Source: an uncultured Chloroflexia bacterium (GTDB taxonomy: Bacteria; Chloroflexota; Limnocylindria; Limnocylindrales; CSP1-4). From it: a stretch of 64,000 bases of DNA. This document shows, piece after piece, positions 11,672 through 23,615 of this stretch. Numbering within the stretch: the first letter of the stretch is position 1; every line of letters begins with the position of its first letter. The notes beneath the pieces are model-generated. The model did no database searches, had not been told where the DNA came from, and was given only the letters and a program-made list of their open reading frames with translations. The translations under genes were made by a program, and so were the position numbers. Location: positions 13,566 through 77,565 of the forward strand of contig CAVRBO010000002.1 of NCBI GenBank assembly GCA_963719285.1, in the 5' to 3' direction.

Positions 11672-12498
11672 CGCTGCTGCGGGTCGCGTTGGTCCAGCTC
11701 GACGCGGGACCCGACCCGGCGGCGAATGTCGCGACGGCCGCCCGACTGGCCGACGAGGCGGCCGCCGGAGGAGCTCGCCTGGTGGCGCTGCCCGAGTCCC
11801 TCCAATACCGGGGCGAGGCAGACGGCTATCGCGATTTTGCCCGACCCATCCCCGGACCGTTCAGCGAGGCATTTTCCGAGGTCGCCCGGCGGCGCGACTG
11901 CTGGATCCTCGCCGGGTCGCTGGCCGAGTCGAGTGCCGACCCGACCCGGCCGTACAACACGAGCGCCCTGATCGCCCCGAGCGGCGACGTGGTCGCCCGC
12001 TACCGCAAGATCCACATGTTCGATATCGATGTGGACGCCGGGCCCGCGGACGTGGAATTGGCCCGGGTGACGCCCGGCGACGAGCTCGTGACTGCCGACG
12101 TCGACGGCGTGAGACTCGGTCTCACGATCTGCTACGACGTCCGGTTCCCCGAACTGTACCGGGCGCTTGCACTGCTCGGCGCTCATGTGCTCACGGTCCC
12201 GGCGAACTTCACGGAGCGCACGGGACGCGACCATTGGGAGGTGCTGCTGCGAGCCCGGGCGATCGAGAACGGCGCCTACGTCATCGCGCCGGCGCAGGTC
12301 AACGGCCCGCCAGGCTCAGCCGCCTACGGACGGACGATGATCGTGGATCCGTGGGGGATCATCGTGGCCCAGGCGCCCGACCGGGTGGGCATCGTCAGCG
12401 CCGAGATCGACACCGCCCGGGTCGCCTCGATCCGGCGCCAGATCCCCGTCCTCGCCAATCGCCGGCCCGCGACATATGAAGCGGCCGCCCGTCGCTGA
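11668..12498 (+). CDS. Carbon-nitrogen hydrolase (nitrilase superfamily, Nit1/deaminated-glutathione amidase-like)
   Basis: Glu-Lys-Cys triad in LPE, YRKIHMFD and ICYDVRFPE; RARAIENGAYV. Confidence 0.9.
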   Translation: MTLLRVALVQLDAGPDPAANVATAARLADEAAAGGARLVALPESLQYRGEADGYRDFARPIPGPFSEAFSEVARRRDCWILAGSLAESSADPTRPYNTSALIAPSGDVVARYRKIHMFDIDVDAGPADVELARVTPGDELVTADVDGVRLGLTICYDVRFPELYRALALLGAHVLTVPANFTERTGRDHWEVLLRARAIENGAYVIAPAQVNGPPGSAAYGRTMIVDPWGIIVAQAPDRVGIVSAEIDTARVASIRRQIPVLANRRPATYEAAARR

Positions 12499-12533
12499 CG
12501 GACGGCCGCTGCGCCGATCGGTGGGACCTGCCG

Positions 12534-14810
12534 CTACGGCAGGACGAGGTGGACCGGGTTGCCCCGGATCTTGGCGGTCCAGGTGGTCACATCGGAGGAT
12601 GTGCCGTTGCCCGACATGTTGTAGCGGATCTTCCACCAGCCCTGTTGCTGGGCCGTGTAGTTGGCCGGGATCGTCACGTCGATGATCAGCCAGCAGCCGT
12701 TATAGATACCGGTACTTCCGCCGCCGGCGTTGGTCGTGATGGCGTTGCCCGTCACGTTCTGCGAGTAGCTCGAGCAGTTCTGCGCGCCGCCGGAGGTGCC
12801 GGTCAGCGAGGACCAGGTCATCGATACGGGCGTCCAGCCGCCGGCGGTCGGGATCTCGATCTGGATGTTCGCGGCGAGGTTGCCGGTGTCGCCCGGGTCC
12901 CACAGGCTCAACTCGAGCGTCTTGCCCGCATGGGCCTGCGGTACCTGGGCGATATAGAACTCGGAATAGGCGCTGCCGCCGGCGACTTCGAGGGGTGAGA
13001 ACATCTGCATCGCGCCAAGGCCGTAGATCTCCGGGGCTGTACCCGAGGCGCTGGCGTAGATCGCGAAGCTCTGTTCGCCGTTGGCGTTCCGCTGCGCGGC
13101 CCCATTGGCTGGGTCTGTGCTGGTCGTATGCAGACGGTAGACCGTCCCGTTCGGGCCGCCACTCAGTGGATTGGCGGGATTGAGCAGGACCCACGAGTCG
13201 TGGTAGTCGCGCCCGTCGCCGTAGACCGAGGACGTCTGCCTGCACTCGGCCTGCCCGTTCGGACCGCCCATGGACGTATCCGATCCATTCAGGTTCGTGA
13301 ACTTGTTTCCGGATGTCTTGATGAGCGTGTCGTCCGCGAGGTTGTAGGGCGTGTTGTTCGTGTTGTAGATCTCGTACCACGAACTCATGCCGTTGTTGCC
13401 GCCGAACCATCGATCGCCCACGCCGGATTGGAGGGCAGTGGCGCAGAACTCGGGGTCGAAGATGTAGACAAATCCGTTCGTCGAACCGGCCGCCATGTCG
13501 ATCGCGTAGTTGTAGTAGTTGACGCTGTCGTAGCACGCCCTGAGCTGCGCCGTCGGACATGGCGGCGCGGCCGTGCTGCCGGTGTCGTAGTAGGGCTGGA
13601 AGGCATCGCCGTTGATGTTCGTGGCGCCTTCCGTGTTCATCGTGCCCCAGAACCCGCGGTAGTTGAGCACGGCACCGTCGGGCTGATAGCAGTCCGAGAC
13701 GCCATTCAGGCAACCGCTGCCCGGGCCCTTGAGGTCCTTGTCGGCGGCCGCGCTCGTCACGTTCGCCGTGTACGTGACCCGGACATTCAGGGTGTCGACC
13801 CGGGCGAAGCGTGCCGCGGCGCAGCTGCCCCGGTTCCAGGTCAGGCGGGCCATGAATCCGGTCGTTGTCGAACTGCCGAAGTCGCCTTGGACCCACGTGT
13901 GGACGGCCCACGGCAGCGTGCTGCCCTGGGATCCGAACGTGTAGGTGACGTTGGACAGGGTCAGGCTCGTCGTGACGACGGTTCCCGAGGCAGCCGGATA
14001 CCAGTTGGTCCCGCCGTTAGGGGTGACCTGCACGCCGATCGTGCAGTTGGCGGCCACCGATGCGGCATCGAGCTTGGCGACGACCCGGACCTCGAGGCCA
14101 TCGATCGTGGCTCCGGCCGGGATGCCGAAGTTCCAGCCGCCCCAGGCCCCTTGCGAACCGTTCGCCGTGTTGCTCGACGAGTAGGTAGTGCCGTTCGCGG
14201 TCGTCTTGTTGTACAGCGTGTTGGTCGATGTCCAGTTGCAGGCCGGTGAACAGCGGTTTGTGCTGGGGACGGCGGTGGGCGCATCCCAGCCGGTATCGGT
14301 CGTCTGCGGTCCCGTGAACGTCGCGTCCTTGATCTTGCCGAAGACACCGTAGTAGTTCTCGGGGCTGCCCATCGCGACGGGCAGGATGAACTCGGCCTTG
14401 GACGTCCGGCTGATCGGGAACGATGCGAGCCCGATGACCCGGGCGAAGAAGGACGGGACGGAGGTCGAGACGGTCACGATCAGCTTGCGATCGTTGTTCG
14501 GGTCCTTCGCCGTGGTGATCGTGGTCCCGTTCACGCCCGACGTGTAGCCGTTCTTGGTGGCCTCGGCCCGGGCGGTCGTGTCCGCGCTGCTGTACAGGTT
14601 CGGCAGCCAGACGACGCCGGCCAGGGCCGCGGCATCGGCCGCGCGCTGGACCCGGAGGGTGTTGGCCCAGTACCACGACACGTCGATGACGATCGCCATC
14701 AGGCCCATGAACGCGAGCATCGCGCCGGCGAAGATGACGATGACCTGGCCGCGCGAGCGGCGGCGGGCCTGCGCTGCGGGTGCGGCCCGCCGGGAGCGGA
14801 ACAGGTTCAC
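12534..14810 (-). CDS. TadG-like Flp/Tad pilus minor subunit or tip protein, copy B (intact, 758 aa)
   Basis: N-terminal RGQVIVIFAG prepilin-like cleavage site plus TM segment and VQRAADAAALAG Tad_N motif, followed by a large Gly/Asn/Thr/Ser-rich, Cys-containing ectodomain. Confidence 0.8.
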   Translation of the reverse strand: MNLFRSRRAAPAAQARRRSRGQVIVIFAGAMLAFMGLMAIVIDVSWYWANTLRVQRAADAAALAGVVWLPNLYSSADTTARAEATKNGYTSGVNGTTITTAKDPNNDRKLIVTVSTSVPSFFARVIGLASFPISRTSKAEFILPVAMGSPENYYGVFGKIKDATFTGPQTTDTGWDAPTAVPSTNRCSPACNWTSTNTLYNKTTANGTTYSSSNTANGSQGAWGGWNFGIPAGATIDGLEVRVVAKLDAASVAANCTIGVQVTPNGGTNWYPAASGTVVTTSLTLSNVTYTFGSQGSTLPWAVHTWVQGDFGSSTTTGFMARLTWNRGSCAAARFARVDTLNVRVTYTANVTSAAADKDLKGPGSGCLNGVSDCYQPDGAVLNYRGFWGTMNTEGATNINGDAFQPYYDTGSTAAPPCPTAQLRACYDSVNYYNYAIDMAAGSTNGFVYIFDPEFCATALQSGVGDRWFGGNNGMSSWYEIYNTNNTPYNLADDTLIKTSGNKFTNLNGSDTSMGGPNGQAECRQTSSVYGDGRDYHDSWVLLNPANPLSGGPNGTVYRLHTTSTDPANGAAQRNANGEQSFAIYASASGTAPEIYGLGAMQMFSPLEVAGGSAYSEFYIAQVPQAHAGKTLELSLWDPGDTGNLAANIQIEIPTAGGWTPVSMTWSSLTGTSGGAQNCSSYSQNVTGNAITTNAGGGSTGIYNGCWLIIDVTIPANYTAQQQGWWKIRYNMSGNGTSSDVTTWTAKIRGNPVHLVLP

Positions 14811-14889
14811 TGGAGGCCTCCTGGACGCGTGCCCGTGGGGGCCCGGCGTGGGGTGGGGGTGGACGTGGTCGTGACCGGGGTCGCGGCGG

Positions 14890-15501
14890 TCATGGGTTGA
14901 GGGCCATGATCGTGCGGTCGTTCATCGGGATGACCCCGCTGCTCGCGCCGCCGCCGAAGAAGCGGGCGATCGACGACAGCGGGGTGACCATGTTGTAGTC
15001 GTAGGTCAGGCTCACCCCGATCGAATCCGGGCTGGCCGCGTTGTTGCGGGTACAGGGCAGCCAGGTCGAGCTCGAGGTCTCGTGGTAGTGGAGCTGGAAG
15101 CCGTCGACCGTCGGCGCGCCGCCGGTGCCGTAGTTCCAGGTGCTCGTCTGGGCGCCGTTCGTCGGCACCCCGGCGCTGGTCGCCTTCCAGATCTTGATCG
15201 TCGTCACGTTGGTCTCGTCGATCGGCGAGCCCGGGCTGGTCAGGACGCGCTCGACCGCGGCGATGATCTGGGGGTCGATCGTCGCGCACACCGCGGCGTT
15301 GCCGCCGCCGTCGGCCAGGGCCGCCCCGGTCCGGGCGCCCTCGCGGGTGGCGTACTCGAGGGTCAGGTTGTGGGTGAACACGAACCCGAACTCGAGCATC
15401 CCGAACAGGATGAGCATGAACGCCGGGACGAGGACCGAGAACTCGACCAGGGCCTGCCCGCGCGAGCGCTCGCGCCGCGGGGCGACGGTGGGGGCGGTCA
15501 C
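14890..15501 (-). CDS. tadE: TadE/TadG-family pseudopilin
   Basis: RGQALVEFSVLVP...ATREGAR TadE motif; GTG overlaps the upstream stop. Confidence 0.87.
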   Translation of the reverse strand: MTAPTVAPRRERSRGQALVEFSVLVPAFMLILFGMLEFGFVFTHNLTLEYATREGARTGAALADGGGNAAVCATIDPQIIAAVERVLTSPGSPIDETNVTTIKIWKATSAGVPTNGAQTSTWNYGTGGAPTVDGFQLHYHETSSSTWLPCTRNNAASPDSIGVSLTYDYNMVTPLSSIARFFGGGASSGVIPMNDRTIMALNP

Positions 15502-16232
15502 AGGACCGGCTCCATCCGCATCGCGTTGGAGCGGGCGAAGTTCCAGCCGGCGCCCGACCAGACCGGGCCGTTGCCGGCCAGGCCGACGAGCCCGCGGATC
15601 GGGGTCTTCCAGGTGTACGTGTAGTTGACCCGCACGCCGATCGTGTCGACCGACGGCATGTGGGTCCCGCCGCAGCCGGCCACGACGTTGCAGCGGCTGC
15701 TCTCGGGATAGCCGTTGGTGGCGATCTGGTAGGGCACCGTGAGCGACGACCCGTCGGGGTAGTTGCAGGTCGTCGTCGTGCCGCTGTGGTTCCAGACGTT
15801 CTTGAGGCTCGAATCGCCGTTCTTGTAGTTGCCGTTCTGGTCGGACCAGTAGATCTCGATCGAGCTGATCTGGTTCGCGTCGGCCGGCGCGCCGACGTCG
15901 TTGATGACCGCCTGGATGATCGCGCAGTCGCTGCCCAGGCCATCGCCCGCCTCGGCCGCCACGAGCGCCGCGTCGCGGCTGGCGAACGCGATCGCCAGGT
16001 TGGCGTTGAACGCGAACGCGAACTCGATGACCGACATCGTGAGCAGGATGAACAGCGGGAAGACGAGGGCGAACTCGACGAGCGACTGGCCCTTCGCCCG
16101 CCGGCGCGGGGCGGACAGGGCGGCCCGCGGGCCGGCGCCGACGAGGGCACTCGGGCGGCGGACCGGGCGGGGGCGGATGCGCCGCCCCCGGCGGGGCACT
16201 CGGGCGAGATCGGTCATGCGGATGGGCCTCAC
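15498..16232 (-). CDS. tadE: TadE-family pseudopilin (start GTG 16232 or ATG 16217)
   Basis: KGQSLVEFALVFP...ASRDAA TadE motif. Confidence 0.85.
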   Translation of the reverse strand: MRPIRMTDLARVPRRGRRIRPRPVRRPSALVGAGPRAALSAPRRRAKGQSLVEFALVFPLFILLTMSVIEFAFAFNANLAIAFASRDAALVAAEAGDGLGSDCAIIQAVINDVGAPADANQISSIEIYWSDQNGNYKNGDSSLKNVWNHSGTTTTCNYPDGSSLTVPYQIATNGYPESSRCNVVAGCGGTHMPSVDTIGVRVNYTYTWKTPIRGLVGLAGNGPVWSGAGWNFARSNAMRMEPVL

Positions 16233-16270
16233 GGTGGCGATGGCGGAGCTGAGGCGCAGTTAATCAATGG

Positions 16271-16290
16271 GACCTTGCGAACCACCTTGC
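16271..16290 (-). promoter_or_regulatory. Two GCAAGGT direct repeats (12-bp period) upstream of the second tad cassette
   Basis: Sense strand GCAAGGTggttcGCAAGGTC; the same motif occurs at 20028..20170 in non-homologous flanking DNA. Confidence 0.5.
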
Positions 16291-16367
16291 AGTCGAGCGA
16301 TCCGGGGCGCCCGCGCACCACGTGCCCCGCGGGTGCTTTCCCGACGGAGCCGGGACCAGGAAACGAA

Positions 16368-16396
16368 GCGACCGCTCGTCGCTGACGAGCGGTCGC
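16368..16396 (-). terminator. Intrinsic terminator downstream of tadG copy A
   Basis: Perfect 13-bp inverted repeat GCGACCGCTCGTC-gct-GACGAGCGGTCGC, followed on the minus strand by TTCGTTTCC. Confidence 0.75.
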
Positions 16397-16435
16397 CCCA
16401 GGTGATCCGGTTGAGGGGTCGGTAACGGCAGGGCC

Positions 16436-18576
16436 CTACGGCAGGACGAGGTGGACCGGGTTGCCGCGGATATCGACCTGCCACGTGGTCGTGTCGTTAC
16501 CGCCATTGACCGTGTACTCGATCTTCCACCAACCCGCGCCCGGTTCGCCCGGCGGCGTCAGTCCGACGGACCCGTAATTGACGGGGAGGGGGATCTCGAT
16601 CGTGATGAGCGCATCGTTGTAGAAGCTGCCGCTGGACGCCGAGGCGGTCTGGATCGAGTTGACGTTGTTCCCGCTGCGTCCGTTATCCGCCGTGTAGCTG
16701 AACGTGGCGTAGTTGTAGGCGTTGCCGTTGGGCGACAGGATACGCAGGAAGGCATCGCCACTGACATCGCCCGGGTCGAACAGCTTGATCTCCATCGTCT
16801 TGCCGGCGTGGACCGCCGCGATCTGGGCCAGGTAGAAGAGTTGCGTTCCGCCGAGCAGGTTGGTGTAGGTCACCATCCGGCCCTGGCCGTAGACCTGCGA
16901 GGCGCCGGATGAGCTCTTCACCCAGGCGCTCCACATGTTCTCCGCATTGGTGGAGTTGTTGCCCGCGACGTTGGTGGTCACGTTGAGGCGATACGTCCCC
17001 GCCGGAAGGCCGGCGGCGAGCTGGTACCACGCGTTGTGATACGGGTCCGCCGAGCAATCGGCAGACGCTGTTCCGGGGAGACCCGAAGTCACCGCTTTGG
17101 TCGGACTGCGTCTTGCCGGCGAACAGGTTGCCCGACGTCGCGACCTGGATATCGTCGCTCGTGTCGAACGGCGTGCCATTGATGTTCTACAGCGAGTAGA
17201 TCGTTGTGACTGGGTTGAGTCGAACCGCCGATCCAGTGATCGCCGGCACCGTAGTTGCCCCCACCAGGGACCGAACCAGTAGCGCAGAAGGTCGGGTCGA
17301 ACAGCTGGACCTGCCCGTTCGGGCCGGCGATGACGACGTTGTAGTCCACGCCCTTGCCGTCGAACTCCGGGTTCGCCCGACTCTTCAGGTTGTCGTTGGT
17401 CGGGTCGAACTGGTCGCCGTTCTCACGGCTCCCGCCCTTCGTGATGTCCGCGCCCCAGAATCCCTGGGTCGGGAGGGTCGCGCCCAACGGGCCGGTGACC
17501 GGCTGGACCGTGTCGGCCGTACTGACCGTGGTGGTGTGCGAGTAGACCACGACTGTCGCGTCGTCGAGCGAGACCGTGCCGCACCCGGCACCCTTGAGGT
17601 GGGTGAGCCGGATCTGGAAGTTGGCCGACGAGAAGTCTCCGGTCGTCCAGGTCGCATGATTGGCGCCCCAGGTGGTGGTATCGGTCGCGCTGCCCAAGGT
17701 GTACCAGGCGTCGCTCGTGGCGATCGTGGGGGTGGTCTGAGGCGCGTTCGCCCAGGTCGTCCCGCCGTTCCACGACACCTCCGCCCTGATCTGGCACGCG
17801 GCGCCGGCCTTGCTGTCCTTCGCCTCGAGGTTGACCTGCAGGCCATCGATCGTGGCGCCGGCCTGGAAGGACCCGAACGAGAAGGTCGTCCAGGCGTCCT
17901 GGTTGTTGTTCGTGCCGGACGTGGTGTACGAGTTGTCCGAGGCATAGGCGCGGTTCGGGTTCGTCCACGCTCCGCCGCTCGTGTTCGACGTGGTGTTGCC
18001 GGTCGGCGCCGATCCGGTCGCAAGGTTGCCCGCGTTGAATCCGGATGGGTTGATGTACGGGTTGGTGGTCGTCGTGGTGACCTTGCTCACGAACGTGCCA
18101 ACGCCGTAGTAGTTCTGCGGGCTGCCCATCGGTACCGGCAGGATGAACTCGGCCTTGGATGTCCGGGTGATCGGGAATGACGAGATACCGATGACCCGGG
18201 CAAAGAAGGATGGCGCCGAGGTCGAGACGGTCACGATGAGGCGGCGGTCGTTGTTCGGGTCCTGGCTCAACGCGATGGTCGTGCCGGCCCCGGGGACATA
18301 CCCGTTCTTCTGGGCCTCGGCGAGCGCCGTGGTCTGGGCGTTGGGCGCCGCTCCTGAGAAGTTGTCGGGCAGCCAGACGACGCCGGCCAGGGCCGCGGCA
18401 TCGGCCGCGCGCTGGACCCGGAGGGTGTTGGCCCAGTACCACGACACGTCGATGACGATCGCCATCAGGCCCATGAACGCGAGCATCGCGCCGGCGAAGA
18501 TGACGATGACCTGGCCGCGCGAGCGGCGGCGGGCCTGCGCTGCGGGTGCGGCCCGCCGGGAGCGGAACAGGTTCAC
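16436..18576 (-). pseudogene. TadG-like protein copy A, disrupted as sequenced (two +1 frameshifts and an in-frame TAG within ~17075-17215)
   Basis: ORFs 17089..18576 and 16436..17179 are the N- and C-terminal parts of a paralog of 12534..14810. The middle frame reads PVTTIYSL*NINGTPFDTSDDIQVATSGNLF, aligning with YEIYNTNNTPYNLADDTLIKTSGNKF of copy B. 2,141 nt minus 2 equals 713 codons. Confidence 0.75.
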
Positions 18577-18655
18577 TGGAGGCCTCCTGGACGCGTGCCC
18601 GTGGGGGCCCGGCGTGGGGTGGGGGTGGACGTGGTCGTGACCGGGGTCGCGGCGG

Positions 18656-19267
18656 TCATGGGTTGAGGGCCATGATCGTGCGGTCGTTCATCGGGATGAC
18701 CCCGCTGCTCGCGCCGCCGCCGAAGAAGCGGGCGATCGACGACAGCGGGGTGACCATGTTGTAGTCGTAGGTCAGGCTCACCCCGATCGAATCCGGGCTG
18801 GCCGCGTTGTTGCGGGTACAGGGCAGCCAGGTCGAGCTCGAGGTCTCGTGGTAGTGGAGCTGGAAGCCGTCGACCGTCGGCGCGCCGCCGGTGCCGTAGT
18901 TCCAGGTGCTCGTCTGGGCGCCGTTCGTCGGCACCCCGGCGCTGGTCGCCTTCCAGATCTTGATCGTCGTCACGTTGGTCTCGTCGATCGGCGAGCCCGG
19001 GCTGGTCAGGACGCGCTCGACCGCGGCGATGATCTGGGGGTCGATCGTCGCGCACACGGCGGCGTTGCCGCCGCCGTCGGCCAGGGCCGCCCCGGTCCGG
19101 GCGCCCTCGCGGGTGGCGTACTCGAGGGTCAGGTTGTGGGTGAACACGAACCCGAACTCGAGCATCCCGAACAGGATGAGCATGAACGCCGGGACGAGGA
19201 CCGAGAACTCGACCAGGGCCTGCCCGCGCGAGCGCTCGCGCCGCGGGGCGACGGTGGGGGCGGTCAC
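18656..19267 (-). CDS. tadE: TadE-family pseudopilin (protein identical to 14890..15501)
   Basis: C-terminal 203 aa of ORF 18656..20182; lies within the repeat. Confidence 0.87.
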   Translation of the reverse strand: MTAPTVAPRRERSRGQALVEFSVLVPAFMLILFGMLEFGFVFTHNLTLEYATREGARTGAALADGGGNAAVCATIDPQIIAAVERVLTSPGSPIDETNVTTIKIWKATSAGVPTNGAQTSTWNYGTGGAPTVDGFQLHYHETSSSTWLPCTRNNAASPDSIGVSLTYDYNMVTPLSSIARFFGGGASSGVIPMNDRTIMALNP

Positions 19268-19998
19268 AGGACCGGCTCCATCCGCATCGCGTTGGAGCGG
19301 GCGAAGTTCCAGCCGGCGCCCGACCAGACCGGGCCGTTGCCGGCCAGGCCGACGAGCCCGCGGATCGGGGTCTTCCAGGTGTACGTGTAGTTGACCCGCA
19401 CGCCGATCGTGTCGACCGACGGCATGTGGGTCCCGCCGCAGCCGGCCACGACGTTGCAGCGGCTGCTCTCGGGATAGCCGTTGGTGGCGATCTGGTAGGG
19501 CACCGTGAGCGACGTCCCGTCGGGGTAGTTGCAGGTCGTCGTCGTGCCGCTGTGGTTCCAGACGTTCTTGAGGCTCGAATCGCCGTTCTTGTAGTTGCCG
19601 TTCTGGTCGGACCAGTAGATCTCGATCGAGCTGATCTGGTTCGCGTCGGCCGGCGCGCCGACGTCGTTGATGACCGCCTGGATGATCGCGCAGTCGCTGC
19701 CCAGGCCATCGCCCGCCTCGGCCGCCACGAGCGCCGCGTCGCGGCTGGCGAACGCGATCGCCAGGTTGGCGTTGAACGCGAACGCGAACTCGATGACCGA
19801 CATCGTGAGCAGGATGAACAGCGGGAAGACGAGGGCGAACTCGACGAGCGACTGGCCCTTCGCCCGCCGGCGCGGGGCGGACAGGGCGGCCCGCGGGCCG
19901 GCGCCGACGAGGGCACTCGGGCGGCGGACCGGGCGGGGGCGGATGCGCCGCCCCCGGCGGGGCACTCGGGCGAGATCGGTCATGCGGATGGGCCTCAC
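19264..19998 (-). CDS. tadE: TadE-family pseudopilin (one residue different from 15498..16232)
   Basis: YPDGTSL versus YPDGSSL; lies within the repeat. Confidence 0.85.
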   Translation of the reverse strand: MRPIRMTDLARVPRRGRRIRPRPVRRPSALVGAGPRAALSAPRRRAKGQSLVEFALVFPLFILLTMSVIEFAFAFNANLAIAFASRDAALVAAEAGDGLGSDCAIIQAVINDVGAPADANQISSIEIYWSDQNGNYKNGDSSLKNVWNHSGTTTTCNYPDGTSLTVPYQIATNGYPESSRCNVVAGCGGTHMPSVDTIGVRVNYTYTWKTPIRGLVGLAGNGPVWSGAGWNFARSNAMRMEPVL

Positions 19999-20027
19999 GG
20001 TGGCGATGGCGGAGCTGGCGGTGGTCG

Positions 20028-20170
20028 GACCTTGATCGGACCTGAGACCGAATATCCCAGTGGGTCCTTGCGAGGGACCTTGCCACGAGGTACCGGTGTG
20101 GCCCGGATGCACCACCCATAAGTACCGGTCCCTCGGGGGGCACGAGAAAATGGGCCTCTGATGTCCTTGC
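20028..20170 (-). promoter_or_regulatory. Cluster of five CAAGG(T/A)C-like direct repeats upstream of the first tad cassette
   Basis: Plus-strand copies GACCTTGA 20028, GACCTGA 20039, GTCCTTGC 20064, GACCTTGC 20076, GTCCTTGC 20163. Confidence 0.5.
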
Positions 20171-20284: not shown

Positions 20285-21974
20285 TCAGCCCTCGAGCGGG
20301 GCCTCCGCGGGCAGCCAGACGGTGAACGCGGCGCCCCGGTCCGTCGCCGTCGGTTCGAGGACGAGATCCCCGCCCATCGCCCGGGCCAGCTCGCGCGCGA
20401 CGTACAACCCGAGCCCGCTGCCGTCCTCCGCGTTCTGGCTGCTGCCACGCTCGAACCGGCCGAAGAGCCGACCCCGGTCGGAGACCGCCACGCCCGGGCC
20501 GTGGTCGGCGATCGTGAGCCTGAGGCGATCGTCGGTCAGGCCGATGCGGACGTCGACCGGGCCTCGTGCGCCGTACTTGACCGCATTGTCGAGCAGGGCC
20601 CAGAGCACCTGGTCGAGCTGGTCCGCGTCGCCGACCGCGAGCCAGCCCTGGCTCTGGTCGTCGAGCTCGAACTGGATCTCCTCGACGGCCAGCGCCTCCC
20701 AGGCCTTGCGGACCCGCGAACCGAGCGACACCACCTCCGCGGTGGGCTTGAGGGCACCCGACTCGAGGCGGGTCACGGTGAGGAGCTGGCGGACCATCCG
20801 GGAGAGGCGATCGGCCTGCTCGGTGATGATCGCCAGGCGCCGGTCCGGATCGGCCCGCGACAGCTGCTCGGCGTATGCCCGGATGCTCGTGAGCGGCGTC
20901 TGGAGGTTGTGGCTCACTCCACGCAGGAAGTCGTCCTTGGCCGCGTCAAGCTCGAGCAGCTGGGTGTTCTGCGCCTCGACCGTCGCGAACAGCTCGGCAT
21001 TCCGGAGCGCGACGCCGACCTGGGCGGCGAATACCTCGAGCAGGTCCTGGTCGGCTCGCTCCCACGTCCGCATGACCGGCGCGTGACCCACCAGGACCCC
21101 GATCCTCTCGTCGCCGGCGCGGAGGTCCGCCCGGATCGGCCGAGGCTCGCCCGGGACGCGGCTCTCGAGCTTGACGGTCGCGGGGTCGACCAGCCGGACC
21201 TCGGCGTCGATGAGCCCGAAGACCTCGCGGGCGTCGGCTCCGGCGCGGCCGATGAGCCAGTCGAGCCCCTGGCGAGGCGTGCTGTGGACGATCGAACCAA
21301 GGATCCGGCCGAGCTCGCGATTGCGCCGCTCGAGGTCCGCGGCGAGCCGGTTGTGGCTCTCGGCGAGACGAGCCAGCTCGTCGTCGCCCGGCAGGTCGAT
21401 CGGGGTCGTCAGGTCGCCCGCCTTGGCCCGGTCCACGGCGGCCGCGATGGCCCGCAGCGGCGCGGTCAGGTCGGCCACGAGGATGTAGGCGGCGAGGCTC
21501 GAGATGAGCGCGGTGACGATGATCGCGAGCAGGAGCAGCCGAGGCGTCGCCGACGCGGAATCCGGGAGTCGCTGGGCGAGCACGAGCAGGAGGCCGAACA
21601 GCGACAGCGGCAGGACCGCCGCCGCGATGAGCGCGAAGGTGAGCCGGGTCGCGAACGCGAACCGGGGCCCCGCCCGCTCGGGCTCGGGACGCCGGAAGAG
21701 CTCGTCGATCTCCTCGGTCCACTCGGTCGGTTCGGGAGGGTCGACGAGGTCGGGGATCGCGGTCGCCGCGTCGGCGAGATCGGCCGACTCCAGGGCGGTC
21801 CCCGGCGTCGGCTCGACGGCCGGTCGGCGGCTGCCCGGCTCGCGTCACGGCCGGGTCGGCGGCCGCCCGGCTCGCGTCCACGGCCGGGTCGGCCGGGCTG
21901 AGCACCCGCTCGGGTGGCGGCGTCGGCGTGGCCGGTTCCGGGGACCGGGTCCTCCCGGGACCGCGCTTCGCCAT
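20285..21974 (-). CDS. Membrane sensor histidine kinase (2 TM, HAMP, GAF-like, HisKA, HATPase); frameshifted near 21818-21881 as sequenced
   Basis: H-box SHNLQTP, N-box LLDNAVKY, DHGPG, GSGLGL. ATG 21974 is coupled to the response-regulator stop (TGATG) but is 2 nt short of being in frame with ORF 20285..21583. Confidence 0.82.
21818..21893. repeat. Short tandem repeat (~2.4 units of 33 bp) in the kinase N-terminus
   Basis: 21849..21881 GGCCGGGTCGGCGGCCGCCCGGCTCGCGTCCAC; 21818..21848 is a 31-bp copy lacking one G and one C; partial third copy at 21882..21893. Confidence 0.8.
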
Positions 21975-22738
21975 CAGGCGTCCGCGGGGGCCAGCGGCGC
22001 GCCGGCCTCGACCGGGTCGCTCCCGTCGCCGACGAGCCGGTAGCCGACACCGCGGACCGTGATGAGGTGGCGTGGATGGTTCGCGTCCTTCTCGAGCTTC
22101 TGGCGAAGGCGACGCATCGTCACCCACAGGTACGAGGGATCCGCGTCCTCCGTGTCGGCCCAGCCACGGGCGAGGAGCGTCTCCGTCGACAGCGTCCGGC
22201 CGAGGTTCGCGGCCAGGGCGTAGAGCAGGCGCGACTCGGTCGGGGTGAGGGCGACCGACGCGCCGTCGACGACCGCCTCGCGGCGGTGCAGCTCGAGCGA
22301 CAGGTCCGGGCCCAGGACGAGCCGCTGCCGGGGGACCCGGTCGCCGAGCCGGCGGAGGACCCGGGTGATCCGGGCCCGCAGCTCCGGGTAGTGGTAGGGC
22401 TTGGTGACGTAGTCCTCGGCCACCTCGTCGAGCAGGTCGGCCTTGCTGTCACCGGCGTCGATGGCCGACAGGACGATGATCGGCAGGTCGGCCCGGCCCT
22501 TGATGACCCGGGCCAGGCTCAGCCCGTCCATCCGCGGCATCATCATGTCGACGATGATCAGGTCGGGCCAGCCCTCGTCGAGTCGCCGCAGCGCCTCCAT
22601 CCCGTCGCGCGCGGTGGTCACGAGGTAGCCGTCGTCGCGCAGTTGCTCGGCGAGGACGACGAGGAGGTTGAGGTCGTCGTCGACGATCAGGATCCGTGGC
22701 GGACCCGCGTCCCGGCCTGTCGGTCCGGCGCTCAGCAT
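21974..22738 (-). CDS. OmpR/KdpE-family response regulator
   Basis: ILIVDDD, DLIIVDMMMP, DYVTKP; C-terminal winged helix LRQKLE...TVRGVGYRL; TATACT 6 nt before ATG. Confidence 0.92.
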   Translation of the reverse strand: MLSAGPTGRDAGPPRILIVDDDLNLLVVLAEQLRDDGYLVTTARDGMEALRRLDEGWPDLIIVDMMMPRMDGLSLARVIKGRADLPIIVLSAIDAGDSKADLLDEVAEDYVTKPYHYPELRARITRVLRRLGDRVPRQRLVLGPDLSLELHRREAVVDGASVALTPTESRLLYALAANLGRTLSTETLLARGWADTEDADPSYLWVTMRRLRQKLEKDANHPRHLITVRGVGYRLVGDGSDPVEAGAPLAPADA

Positions 22739-22769
22739 GGCCCGAGTATAGGCAGCGCCGAGGGCCCGC

Positions 22770-23615
22770 TCAGGGAGCGTGCCGGTCGACGTATCGGCAG
22801 CGCGTCGCGACGGGGCAGTGGGCGCAATCCGGCCGGCGAGCGTGGCAGATCGCCCGGCCGTGCTGGATGAGATTGACGTGCGCCTCGAGCGCCCGGTCGG
22901 GCGGGACGAGGGCGAGGAACAGGTCATGCGCGTCGTCGGCCGATGCCTTCGGCGGGATCAGACCGATCCGCCGGCTCACCCGCTCCACGTGGCGGTCGAC
23001 CGGTACGAGGGGCATCCCGAAGCTGAACATGAGCAGGACCGAGGCAGTCTTCCTGCCGATCCCGTCGATCCGGGTGAGCCAGGCGCGCGCCTCGAGCGGC
23101 GGCATGTCGGCCAGGAACTCGAGCGAGTGGTCGCCGCGCTCCTCACGGATGAGGCGCAGCGCGTTCTGGATCCGGGGCGACTTCGAGACCGCGAGGCCGC
23201 CCGGCCTGATCGCCTCGATGAGATCGGGGAGTGGCGCGACCTCGACCGCGGCCCAGTCGGGCGCCGCTCCGGGCGAGAGCCCCTCGCCGCCCCAGCCCGG
23301 ACCGGGGGCGTGGACCTGGACGGCGCCGCCCGACGGGAACGCCGCCCGGAGGCTCTCGAATGCCCGTTCGGCATTGATGTCGGCGCTGTTCTGGGTGAGG
23401 ATCGTGAGGATGAGCTCGCTTGTGGGATCGAGCCGGCGCACCCAGACCGGCCGCCCGTAGCGCTCGGCCAGCCGCCCGAGCACGAACGTCACGAGTCCGG
23501 GCCGTCGCCGCTCGAGCCCCTTCGCCCAGGTCGCGCCCGGGTCGGAGAAGCGGCGTCGACGCGGTCGCGCCTTTCCCTTCGGTCGGCGCGTCGCCGGGAC
23601 GGCGGTCGGGCTCAA
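22770..23615 (-). CDS. nth: Endonuclease III (HhH-GPD, [4Fe-4S])
   Basis: LILTILTQNS, IDGIGRKTASVLL HhH, VDRHVER, C-terminal CHARRPDCAHCPVATRC; probable TTG start overlapping the upstream stop. Confidence 0.85.
   Translation of the reverse strand: MSPTAVPATRRPKGKARPRRRRFSDPGATWAKGLERRRPGLVTFVLGRLAERYGRPVWVRRLDPTSELILTILTQNSADINAERAFESLRAAFPSGGAVQVHAPGPGWGGEGLSPGAAPDWAAVEVAPLPDLIEAIRPGGLAVSKSPRIQNALRLIREERGDHSLEFLADMPPLEARAWLTRIDGIGRKTASVLLMFSFGMPLVPVDRHVERVSRRIGLIPPKASADDAHDLFLALVPPDRALEAHVNLIQHGRAICHARRPDCAHCPVATRCRYVDRHAP

Follow-up and report, generated by a model that had tools for sequence, protein, structure and literature searches.

How does a genome come to hold two neighbouring sets of pilus genes that are nearly identical over one part of their length and strongly diverged over the rest? 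The question is raised by positions 12534-20017 of a 64,000-nucleotide stretch of DNA, referred to here as the window, from an uncultured Chloroflexia bacterium (GenBank assembly GCA_963719285.1, contig CAVRBO010000002.1). Two TadE-TadE-TadG cassettes lie there in tandem, with all of their genes on the minus strand. The cassettes are minor-pilin sets, as a sequence-only reading of the DNA had proposed, the small proteins matching PF07811 and the large ones PF13400. The comparisons described below suggest that they probably serve a Tad (type IVc) pilus as two adjacent tip modules, in which a shared base has been kept uniform by gene conversion while the tips differ.

The cassettes share a direct repeat of 1,650 bp, wherein positions 14602-16251 (copy A) match 18368-20017 (copy B) at an offset of 3,766 with exactly two mismatches, just as the sequence-only reading had described. 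The mismatch at 15292 (GCG/GCC) is synonymous at Ala70 of the 203-residue TadE, and the one at 15749 (TCG/ACG) exchanges Ser and Thr at residue 162 of the 244-residue TadE. Each copy runs from 19 nucleotides upstream of the first TadE open reading frame, through both TadE-like genes, to codon 69-70 of tadG, and so takes in 209 bp of that gene with its first 69 codons. A blastn search of the bacterium's own genome (3.4 Mb, five contigs) with the repeat returned these two copies at 99.88% identity and no third. The identical last 30 nucleotides of the two tadG genes (12534-12563 and 16436-16465), which had also been noted from the letters, are a true observation as well; a 55-nucleotide stretch at these 3′ ends is 85% identical.

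A comparison of 12 TadG sequences indicates that the TadG bodies of the two cassettes represent separate, ancient paralog types, and that either has closer orthologs in other genera. In its C-terminal part, TadG1 (cassette A) is 79% identical to the protein of a genome from the same genus (G002) and 58% identical to one protein of a genome from another genus (G015), as against 36% to TadG2 (cassette B). The same part of TadG2 is 71% identical to a protein of genome G021, 62% identical to another G015 protein, and 75-79% identical to the type-2 orthologs on the metagenome contigs L068, L069, L070, L072, and L077. Maximum-likelihood trees group the sequences differently for the two ends of the protein. 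Residues 375-758 split the two TadG types with support of 100/99 and 99/98, whereas residues 1-160 group the proteins by genome, with the window's own genome (G000) beside G002 and the three G015 copies together.

Over residues 1-70, TadG2 is 100% identical to TadG1 and 50-54% identical to the type-2 orthologs. When the two tadG genes are compared, synonymous divergence (dS) stands at 0.02 over codons 1-70 and rises to ~1 or more in the body, a rate profile that, together with the 36% identity of the C-terminal parts, bears out the strong divergence of the TadG bodies seen earlier. Within the repeat tract the paralogs are identical apart from the two mismatches and the orthologs are only ~90% identical; outside the tract the relationship is reversed, and the borders of the tract are sharp, at 14602 and 16251. 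At the nucleotide level tadG2 is a mosaic, in which nucleotides 1-209 are 100% A-type, 211-300 are type 2, ~300-420 are A-type at ~83%, and the sequence beyond 450 is type 2. These patterns indicate that cassette B is a chimera that arose through interlocus gene conversion, with a donor of the A type. Because the A-type patch at nucleotides ~300-420 is equally distant from TadG1 and from the L065 ortholog, it is likely to reflect an older event, indicating that conversion happened more than once. The mosaic of tadG2 therefore points to repeated interlocus conversion between co-resident paralogs.

The window's TadE pair is of the kind that accompanies TadG1-type genes in relatives with one cassette (G002, L064, and L065-67). 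The TadE pair found 5′ of the type-2 TadG on L068, L069, L070, L072, and L077 is 43-50% identical to it. The genes flanking these type-2 cassettes show 84-86% DNA identity to the window's own genome, and this therefore corresponds roughly to genus distance, where orthologous TadEs are ~88-90% identical. In these relatives, a sister lineage, a complete type-2 cassette lies directly after rny, and the matching site in the own genome (C1:507858/507947) is empty. Cassette location thus differs between close relatives, as a comparison of L068, L069, and L077 with the empty C1:507858-507947 makes plain.

The identical 30 bp at the 3′ ends were considered as a second flank of conversion, and this was rejected since the motif and its codons are conserved across genera. 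The sequence GNPVHLVLP is invariant or nearly so in an alignment of 10 sequences, and 29 of the 30 terminal bases are the same in a tadG of G015. The sequence-only reading had pictured homogenised constant parts on both sides of a variable part. This holds on the 5′ side, where conversion accounts for it, but not on the 3′ side, where the shared ending is family-wide. Its suggestion of variable TadG middles is upheld with respect to their different origin, but these are ancient types found across genera and not a fast-diverging duplicate.

Similar arrangements occur in other genomes. In G015, a 1,291-bp block recurs at 100% identity in two tandem cassettes, extending from the promoter box across both TadE genes to the start of tadG; an identity of ~90% persists along the TadG head, after which the bodies diverge, and there is a third TadG beyond them. 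Analogous repeats in G017 are 73-85% identical, so that homogenisation would be recurrent and not universal. A metagenome contig (L085) mirrors the window's inter-cassette junction, having the end of a type-2-like TadG, a hairpin, and a box, followed by TadE-TadE-TadG. Two further arrangements were observed in passing. At G017:C15:76000-106200, ~twelve TadE-domain matches and at least two TadG genes occupy 30 kb with the orthologous kinase gene in the middle, a tip-cassette array much larger than that of the window. In G003, from the same genus, TadE matches come in pairs with identical scores (C40/C149 and C19/C22), which may be near-identical cassettes or duplicated contigs.

Cassette number at the kinase locus also differs between relatives. 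The window has two cassettes at this position, as compared with a single one in G002, L064, L065, and G001. In G002 and L065-67 the kinase is accompanied by a VWA/DUF7507 surface protein and a single type-1 cassette; L064 likewise has one cassette of type 1, and the one cassette of G001 carries a short type-2-like TadG. This comparison indicates that the tip repertoire varies over evolutionary time. The protein that lies between kinase and cassette at L052 11436-13001 (G002) and L065 2088-3623 is membrane-anchored and combines VWA with DUF7507/DUF11, and cassette B of the window sits in the slot that it holds in G002 and L065. This slot between kinase and cassette seems to vary in the surface or adhesion genes that it takes up.

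Read on the minus strand, cassette A encodes TadEb (15498-16232), a TadE/TadF-like minor pilin that matches PF07811 at 6.6e-12 and is 89% identical to its G002 ortholog; TadEa (14890-15501), a TadE-like minor pilin that matches PF07811 at 6.8e-15 and is 90% identical to its G002 ortholog; and TadG1 (12534-14810), an intact TadG-like large minor pilin of 758 residues with orthologs at 77-84% identity. Cassette B encodes TadEb′ (19264-19998; TadE/TadF-like), which has Thr162 instead of the Ser of TadEb and was assigned through the PF07811 match on copy A and its translation; TadEa′ (18656-19267; TadE-like, by Pfam and translation), a protein identical to TadEa; and TadG2 (16436-18576), the chimeric TadG-like large minor pilin, which is frame-broken in the window and was delimited by its PF13400 match, tblastn, and the mosaic comparison. 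Copy B of the repeat accordingly consists of a leader, TadEb′, TadEa′, and the first 69 codons of TadG2. PF13400, the Tad/TadG N-terminal domain, was matched in both TadG1 and TadG2, and NCBIfam gave no informative match for TadG or the TadEs.

In translation, the TadEs of both cassettes carry a prepilin-peptidase motif with Glu5 (G|QSLVEF in TadEb′, G|QALVEF in TadEa′), and the TadG signal (G|QVIVIF) is without Glu5. Cap subunits of type IV filament tips likewise lack Glu5. An AlphaFold2 model of TadG1, built with 58 homologs (mean predicted local distance difference test 85, predicted template-modelling score 0.72), features a long helix at residues 21-66 and a pilin-like sheet, followed by several beta-sandwich domains that make up an all-beta ectodomain. 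A PDB fold search with this model returned weak jelly-roll and carbohydrate-binding-module-like matches alone, with template-modelling scores below 0.2, and no ligand is therefore claimed. Homologs of TadG1 number in the hundreds, and those that are named come from metagenome-assembled genomes of Chloroflexota.

The rest of the Tad machinery is encoded elsewhere in the genome. The core tad locus on contig C3 comprises four flp genes, cpaB, TadZ, cpaF, tadB, and tadC, with no TadE or TadG at this locus, and the A24 peptidase is encoded on contig C1. A third TadE-TadE-TadG cassette is likewise found on C1, where its TadG is shorter and a second cpaB accompanies it. At the core locus (C3:277782-285461, L063) the four flp genes are in tandem and TadZ has an N-terminal response-regulator receiver domain (receiver-ParA); a HisKA_3 kinase and a LuxR-type regulator are encoded directly upstream. 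The third cassette (C1:728970-732780, L013 10970-14779) encodes a TadG of ~513 residues without the variable beta-sandwich insert (TadG1 residues ~160-385), and the second CpaB gene lies 3′ of it.

In the mechanism proposed here, each cassette would seemingly be its own transcription unit of two small TadE/TadF-like minor pilins and one large TadG-like pilin, and the pilus motor, the platform, and the four Flp pilins would be supplied from the other contig. By analogy with the KilL/M/N Tips of Myxococcus, the three N-terminal helices may form a base that primes and caps the filament, and the TadG ectodomain may be its exposed, specificity-giving end; it is this analogy that suggests a tip role for the modules. 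The TadE pair and the TadG head helix of cassette B would have been overwritten by cassette-A sequence, with the latest tract covering 1,650 bp at 0.12% divergence. An older A-type patch would survive deeper in tadG2, the rest of which would be the ancient second TadG type.

A terminator and an upstream motif for each cassette, as proposed from the sequence alone, are recovered in the form of a hairpin and an AAGGT-N7-AAGG(T/A) box, on the same strand as the genes. The hairpin 3′ of TadG1 (12481-12509) has a 14-bp stem at -38 kcal/mol with a z of -4.1, and the one 3′ of TadG2 (16370-16394), with which it is mutually homologous, has an 11-bp stem followed by GCUUCGUUU. The promoter-like region of cassette A (16257-16288) features AAGGT-N7-AAGGT (16272-16288) followed by GATTAA, and its box is closest to those of G002 and L065. 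That of cassette B (20048-20081) features AAGGT-N7-AAGGA (20065-20081) followed by GATATT. Hairpins and boxes were found through folding and alignment; a scan for consensus promoters and terminators yielded nothing relevant in DNA of 72% GC and missed the hairpins for want of a long T run. The GATATT-like hexamer follows ~8 nucleotides after the box, which is the layout of an activator box that replaces the -35 element. In the own genome the strict form of the box occurs at these two sites alone. The box was rejected as a genome-wide regulon marker, as its relaxed matches elsewhere fall in coding Lys-Asp/Lys-Val runs.

Directly upstream of the cassettes on the coding strand are the genes for an OmpR/PhoB-type response regulator (21974-22927) and a sensor histidine kinase (20285-21977). 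The regulator has a receiver and a winged helix (Pfam Response_reg and Trans_reg_C), and its true start is likely near 22738, as the G002 ortholog begins MLSAGPTG. In the kinase, transmembrane, HAMP, GAF-like, HisKA, and HATPase segments were recognized with Pfam. Kinase and regulator genes adjoin cassettes in G001, G002, L064, L065, L079, G017, and G021 in addition to the own genome, and the box architecture is also found 5′ of cassettes in G001 (twice), G002, G015, L064, L065-67, L079 (twice), and L085. Most likely, the adjacent OmpR-type two-component system activates both cassettes via the boxes, where it would act at the place of a -35 element with a GATATT-like -10 next to it. This system and the AAGGT-N7-AAGGT box make up a concrete candidate regulon. 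No box is present at the rny-site type-2 cassette, so joining a type-2 body to the A-type head at the kinase locus would also have put that body under this circuit. A separate observation concerns window positions 21790-21980, where the first ~34 codons of the kinase (MAKRGPGRT..., overlapping the regulator stop) are out of frame. Relative to the G002 and L064 orthologs, which are in a single frame, the shift lies near 21820, and contigs of sequencing run X2 have one base more at 21819/21821; it is probably an assembly indel.

Several observations weigh against the reading of two regulated tip modules with a converted base. Within the own genome the box is absent at the third cassette and at the core tad locus, its spacing of 12 bp is slightly unusual for OmpR/PhoB sites, and a search for RNA runs containing the region found none. 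The TadE pair of G015 is likewise just 45-50% identical to that of the window, so the argument from the low identity of the type-2-linked pair depends on the calibration by flank identity. The junction at 16252-16390 is covered by no public read or contig and no run containing 16225-16445 was found, so that the tandem order rests on the assembly and on analogous arrays elsewhere. Finally, TadG2 is not one open frame in the window, and none of its three lesions falls at a homopolymer, so real decay of the gene has to be considered.

The lesions of TadG2 comprise two frameshifts and one stop within 160 bp. Frame 1 extends to ~17221, frame 2 contains an in-frame TAG at 17188-17190, and frame 3 begins from ~17063; a tblastn search with TadG1 against the region gave collinear homology across the three successive frames, with the TAG in the middle piece. 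Three inactivating lesions so close together and away from homopolymers, along with the fact that close relatives manage with a single cassette at this locus, would fit a decaying duplicate, in which TadG2 is a true pseudogene, the 5′ identity is the mere trace of a recent partial duplication, and cassette B has no second-tip function. Against this, contigs from two independent sequencing runs read through each lesion site. The X1 contig equals the window over 17106-17327 save at exactly two of the lesion sites, the X2 contig differs in length from the window at the third, and both read through in a single frame; at the position of the stop, X1 encodes the same residue as the G021 homolog. The rest of the 2.1-kb TadG2 gene has no lesion and keeps the invariant residues of the family, and type-2 orthologs are intact in several relatives. 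The comparable one-base discrepancy in the adjoining kinase gene likewise points to assembly error.

An intact TadG2 thus exists in the population. Because the short-read contigs of runs X1 and X2 keep one frame across the three lesions, the breaks are probably local errors of the long-read metagenome assembly, and a strain-specific decaying copy is the less likely choice. The wider proposal that cassette B as a whole is a decaying duplicate is improbable. Programmed frameshifting or stop read-through was rejected, as the contigs of the other runs read the sites in one frame. In practical terms, a comparison with short-read contigs is advisable before a frame-broken gene in a long-read metagenome-assembled genome is labelled a pseudogene.

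Another explanation treats the tandem itself as an artefact, in which a haplotype with a TadG1 cassette and a haplotype with a TadG2 cassette at one locus were stitched together through the 1,650-bp block. The window does stem from a soil metagenome assembly that has local errors, its relatives carry either a type-1 cassette (G002, L064, L065) or a type-2-like one (G001) after the kinase gene, and the junction is missing from public contigs. However, short-read contigs stop at the repeat borders in other samples as well, the 3′ flank of TadG2 is unlike that of TadG1, and the X1 contig joins 45 nucleotides of it (16391-16435) to the TadG2 end. The junction also contains a natural-looking terminator and a cassette-A promoter box orthologous to that of G002, and the contig of the window is 215 kb long in a genome of five contigs. 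In addition, the older A-type patch in TadG2 needs long co-residence of both types, and equivalent tandem arrays exist in G015 and L085. An artefact of this kind is thus very unlikely.

The recombinational tip switch of the sequence-only reading, in which RecA-mediated recombination between the 1,650-bp repeats would reversibly delete or amplify the 3,766-bp unit, finds some favour in that direct repeats of such length and near-identity can undergo deletion and duplication and that cassette number differs among relatives, but it is highly improbable as a programmed device, given that neither cassette depends on rearrangement for its expression, a promoter box and a terminator being present at both, that the locus has no recombinase among its neighbours, no inverted repeat, and no silent promoterless copy, that single-cassette relatives have a VWA or other gene in the slot and are not simple deletion products, and that deletion is irreversible without a second template. 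The contigs covered in looking for rearranged forms were short, of low depth, and unable to span a 1.65-kb repeat.

Two tandem tip modules with a conversion-linked base thus remain the preferred reading, and a broader idea can be built upon it. Tentatively, Limnocylindria-type Chloroflexota may possess plug-and-play tips, in which a resident base block, made up of both small pilins and the TadG head helix and matched to the Tad machine, is repeatedly recopied by conversion onto TadG bodies of other types that move between loci such as the rny site and the kinase site. If this were true, any ectodomain could become compatible with the host's single Tad machine. Since the pattern recurs in two genera, selection may be upholding the process, as opposed to its being an accident of tandem repeats. 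The locus and its replicate in G015 suggest how tip repertoires may be built and kept working, with recombination keeping the machine-facing base uniform as old, distinct ectodomain types are swapped in. The hosts are abundant uncultured soil Chloroflexota.

The closest known system is the Kil Tad pilus of Myxococcus xanthus, which has four paralogous sets of TadE/F/G-like KilL/M/N proteins, Tip1-4 (Herrou et al., Nat Commun 2025, PMC12075869). These are predicted to be heterotrimeric tips, with three helices at the base and a KilN extremity that varies, and the same role was proposed for TadEFG elsewhere (PMC12075869). Myxococcus is so far the only organism shown to diversify Tad pili by alternative tip complexes. 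Such tips are therefore already known, and the present locus fits that kind. Like the Kil system, it features several paralogous three-gene minor-pilin sets per Tad machine, some away from the machinery genes, and a large TadG-like subunit with a variable C-terminal domain. Unlike in Myxococcus, the sets are in tandem, the host is a monoderm-type soil Chloroflexota bacterium, conversion appears to keep the base DNA identical, and the head and body of one TadG are of different types. The sets described here are also accompanied by a dedicated two-component system and a promoter box, and no role such as predation or adhesion is claimed for them.

The canonical tadE-tadF-tadG genes of Aggregatibacter actinomycetemcomitans and Pseudomonas aeruginosa, and those of the cpaJ/K/L type in Caulobacter, resemble the cassettes in their TadE N-terminal domain, prepilin-peptidase motif, and PF13400 TadG. 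Unlike them, the cassettes lie apart from the core locus and number three per genome. The ectodomain of the window's TadG also differs from that of canonical TadG, as it is without VWA and consists of stacked beta-sandwich domains that have no good match among solved structures.

A further comparison is with Neisseria, where silent promoterless pilS copies donate variable sequence to one expression locus, pilE. In both systems conversion acts between pilin-gene copies, tandem or dispersed, whose N-terminal part is constant and whose exposed part varies. Here, however, it is the constant part that would be copied, each copy has a promoter, and nothing points to programmed exchange at high frequency. 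Neither silent promoterless donors nor invertible segments with a dedicated recombinase, the marks of programmed variation as in pilE/pilS conversion, shufflons, and invertible promoters, are found at this locus, where each cassette has start codons along with its promoter box and terminator.

The tip complexes of the type II secretion system (GspH-I-J-K) and of type IVa pili (PilV-W-X-PilY1) likewise have a top subunit without Glu5, and their minor pilins prime assembly and sit at the tip (reviewed in PMC10191384). They differ in belonging to other protein families, in having a single set per machine, and in lacking tandem sets made uniform by conversion. Nothing relevant emerged from a search of the literature for gene conversion in minor-pilin cassettes. 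Ultimately, set against these systems, the novelty of this locus lies in a tandem arrangement within Chloroflexota, in a two-component circuit and its box, and chiefly in base DNA that evolves in concert, together with a chimeric TadG.

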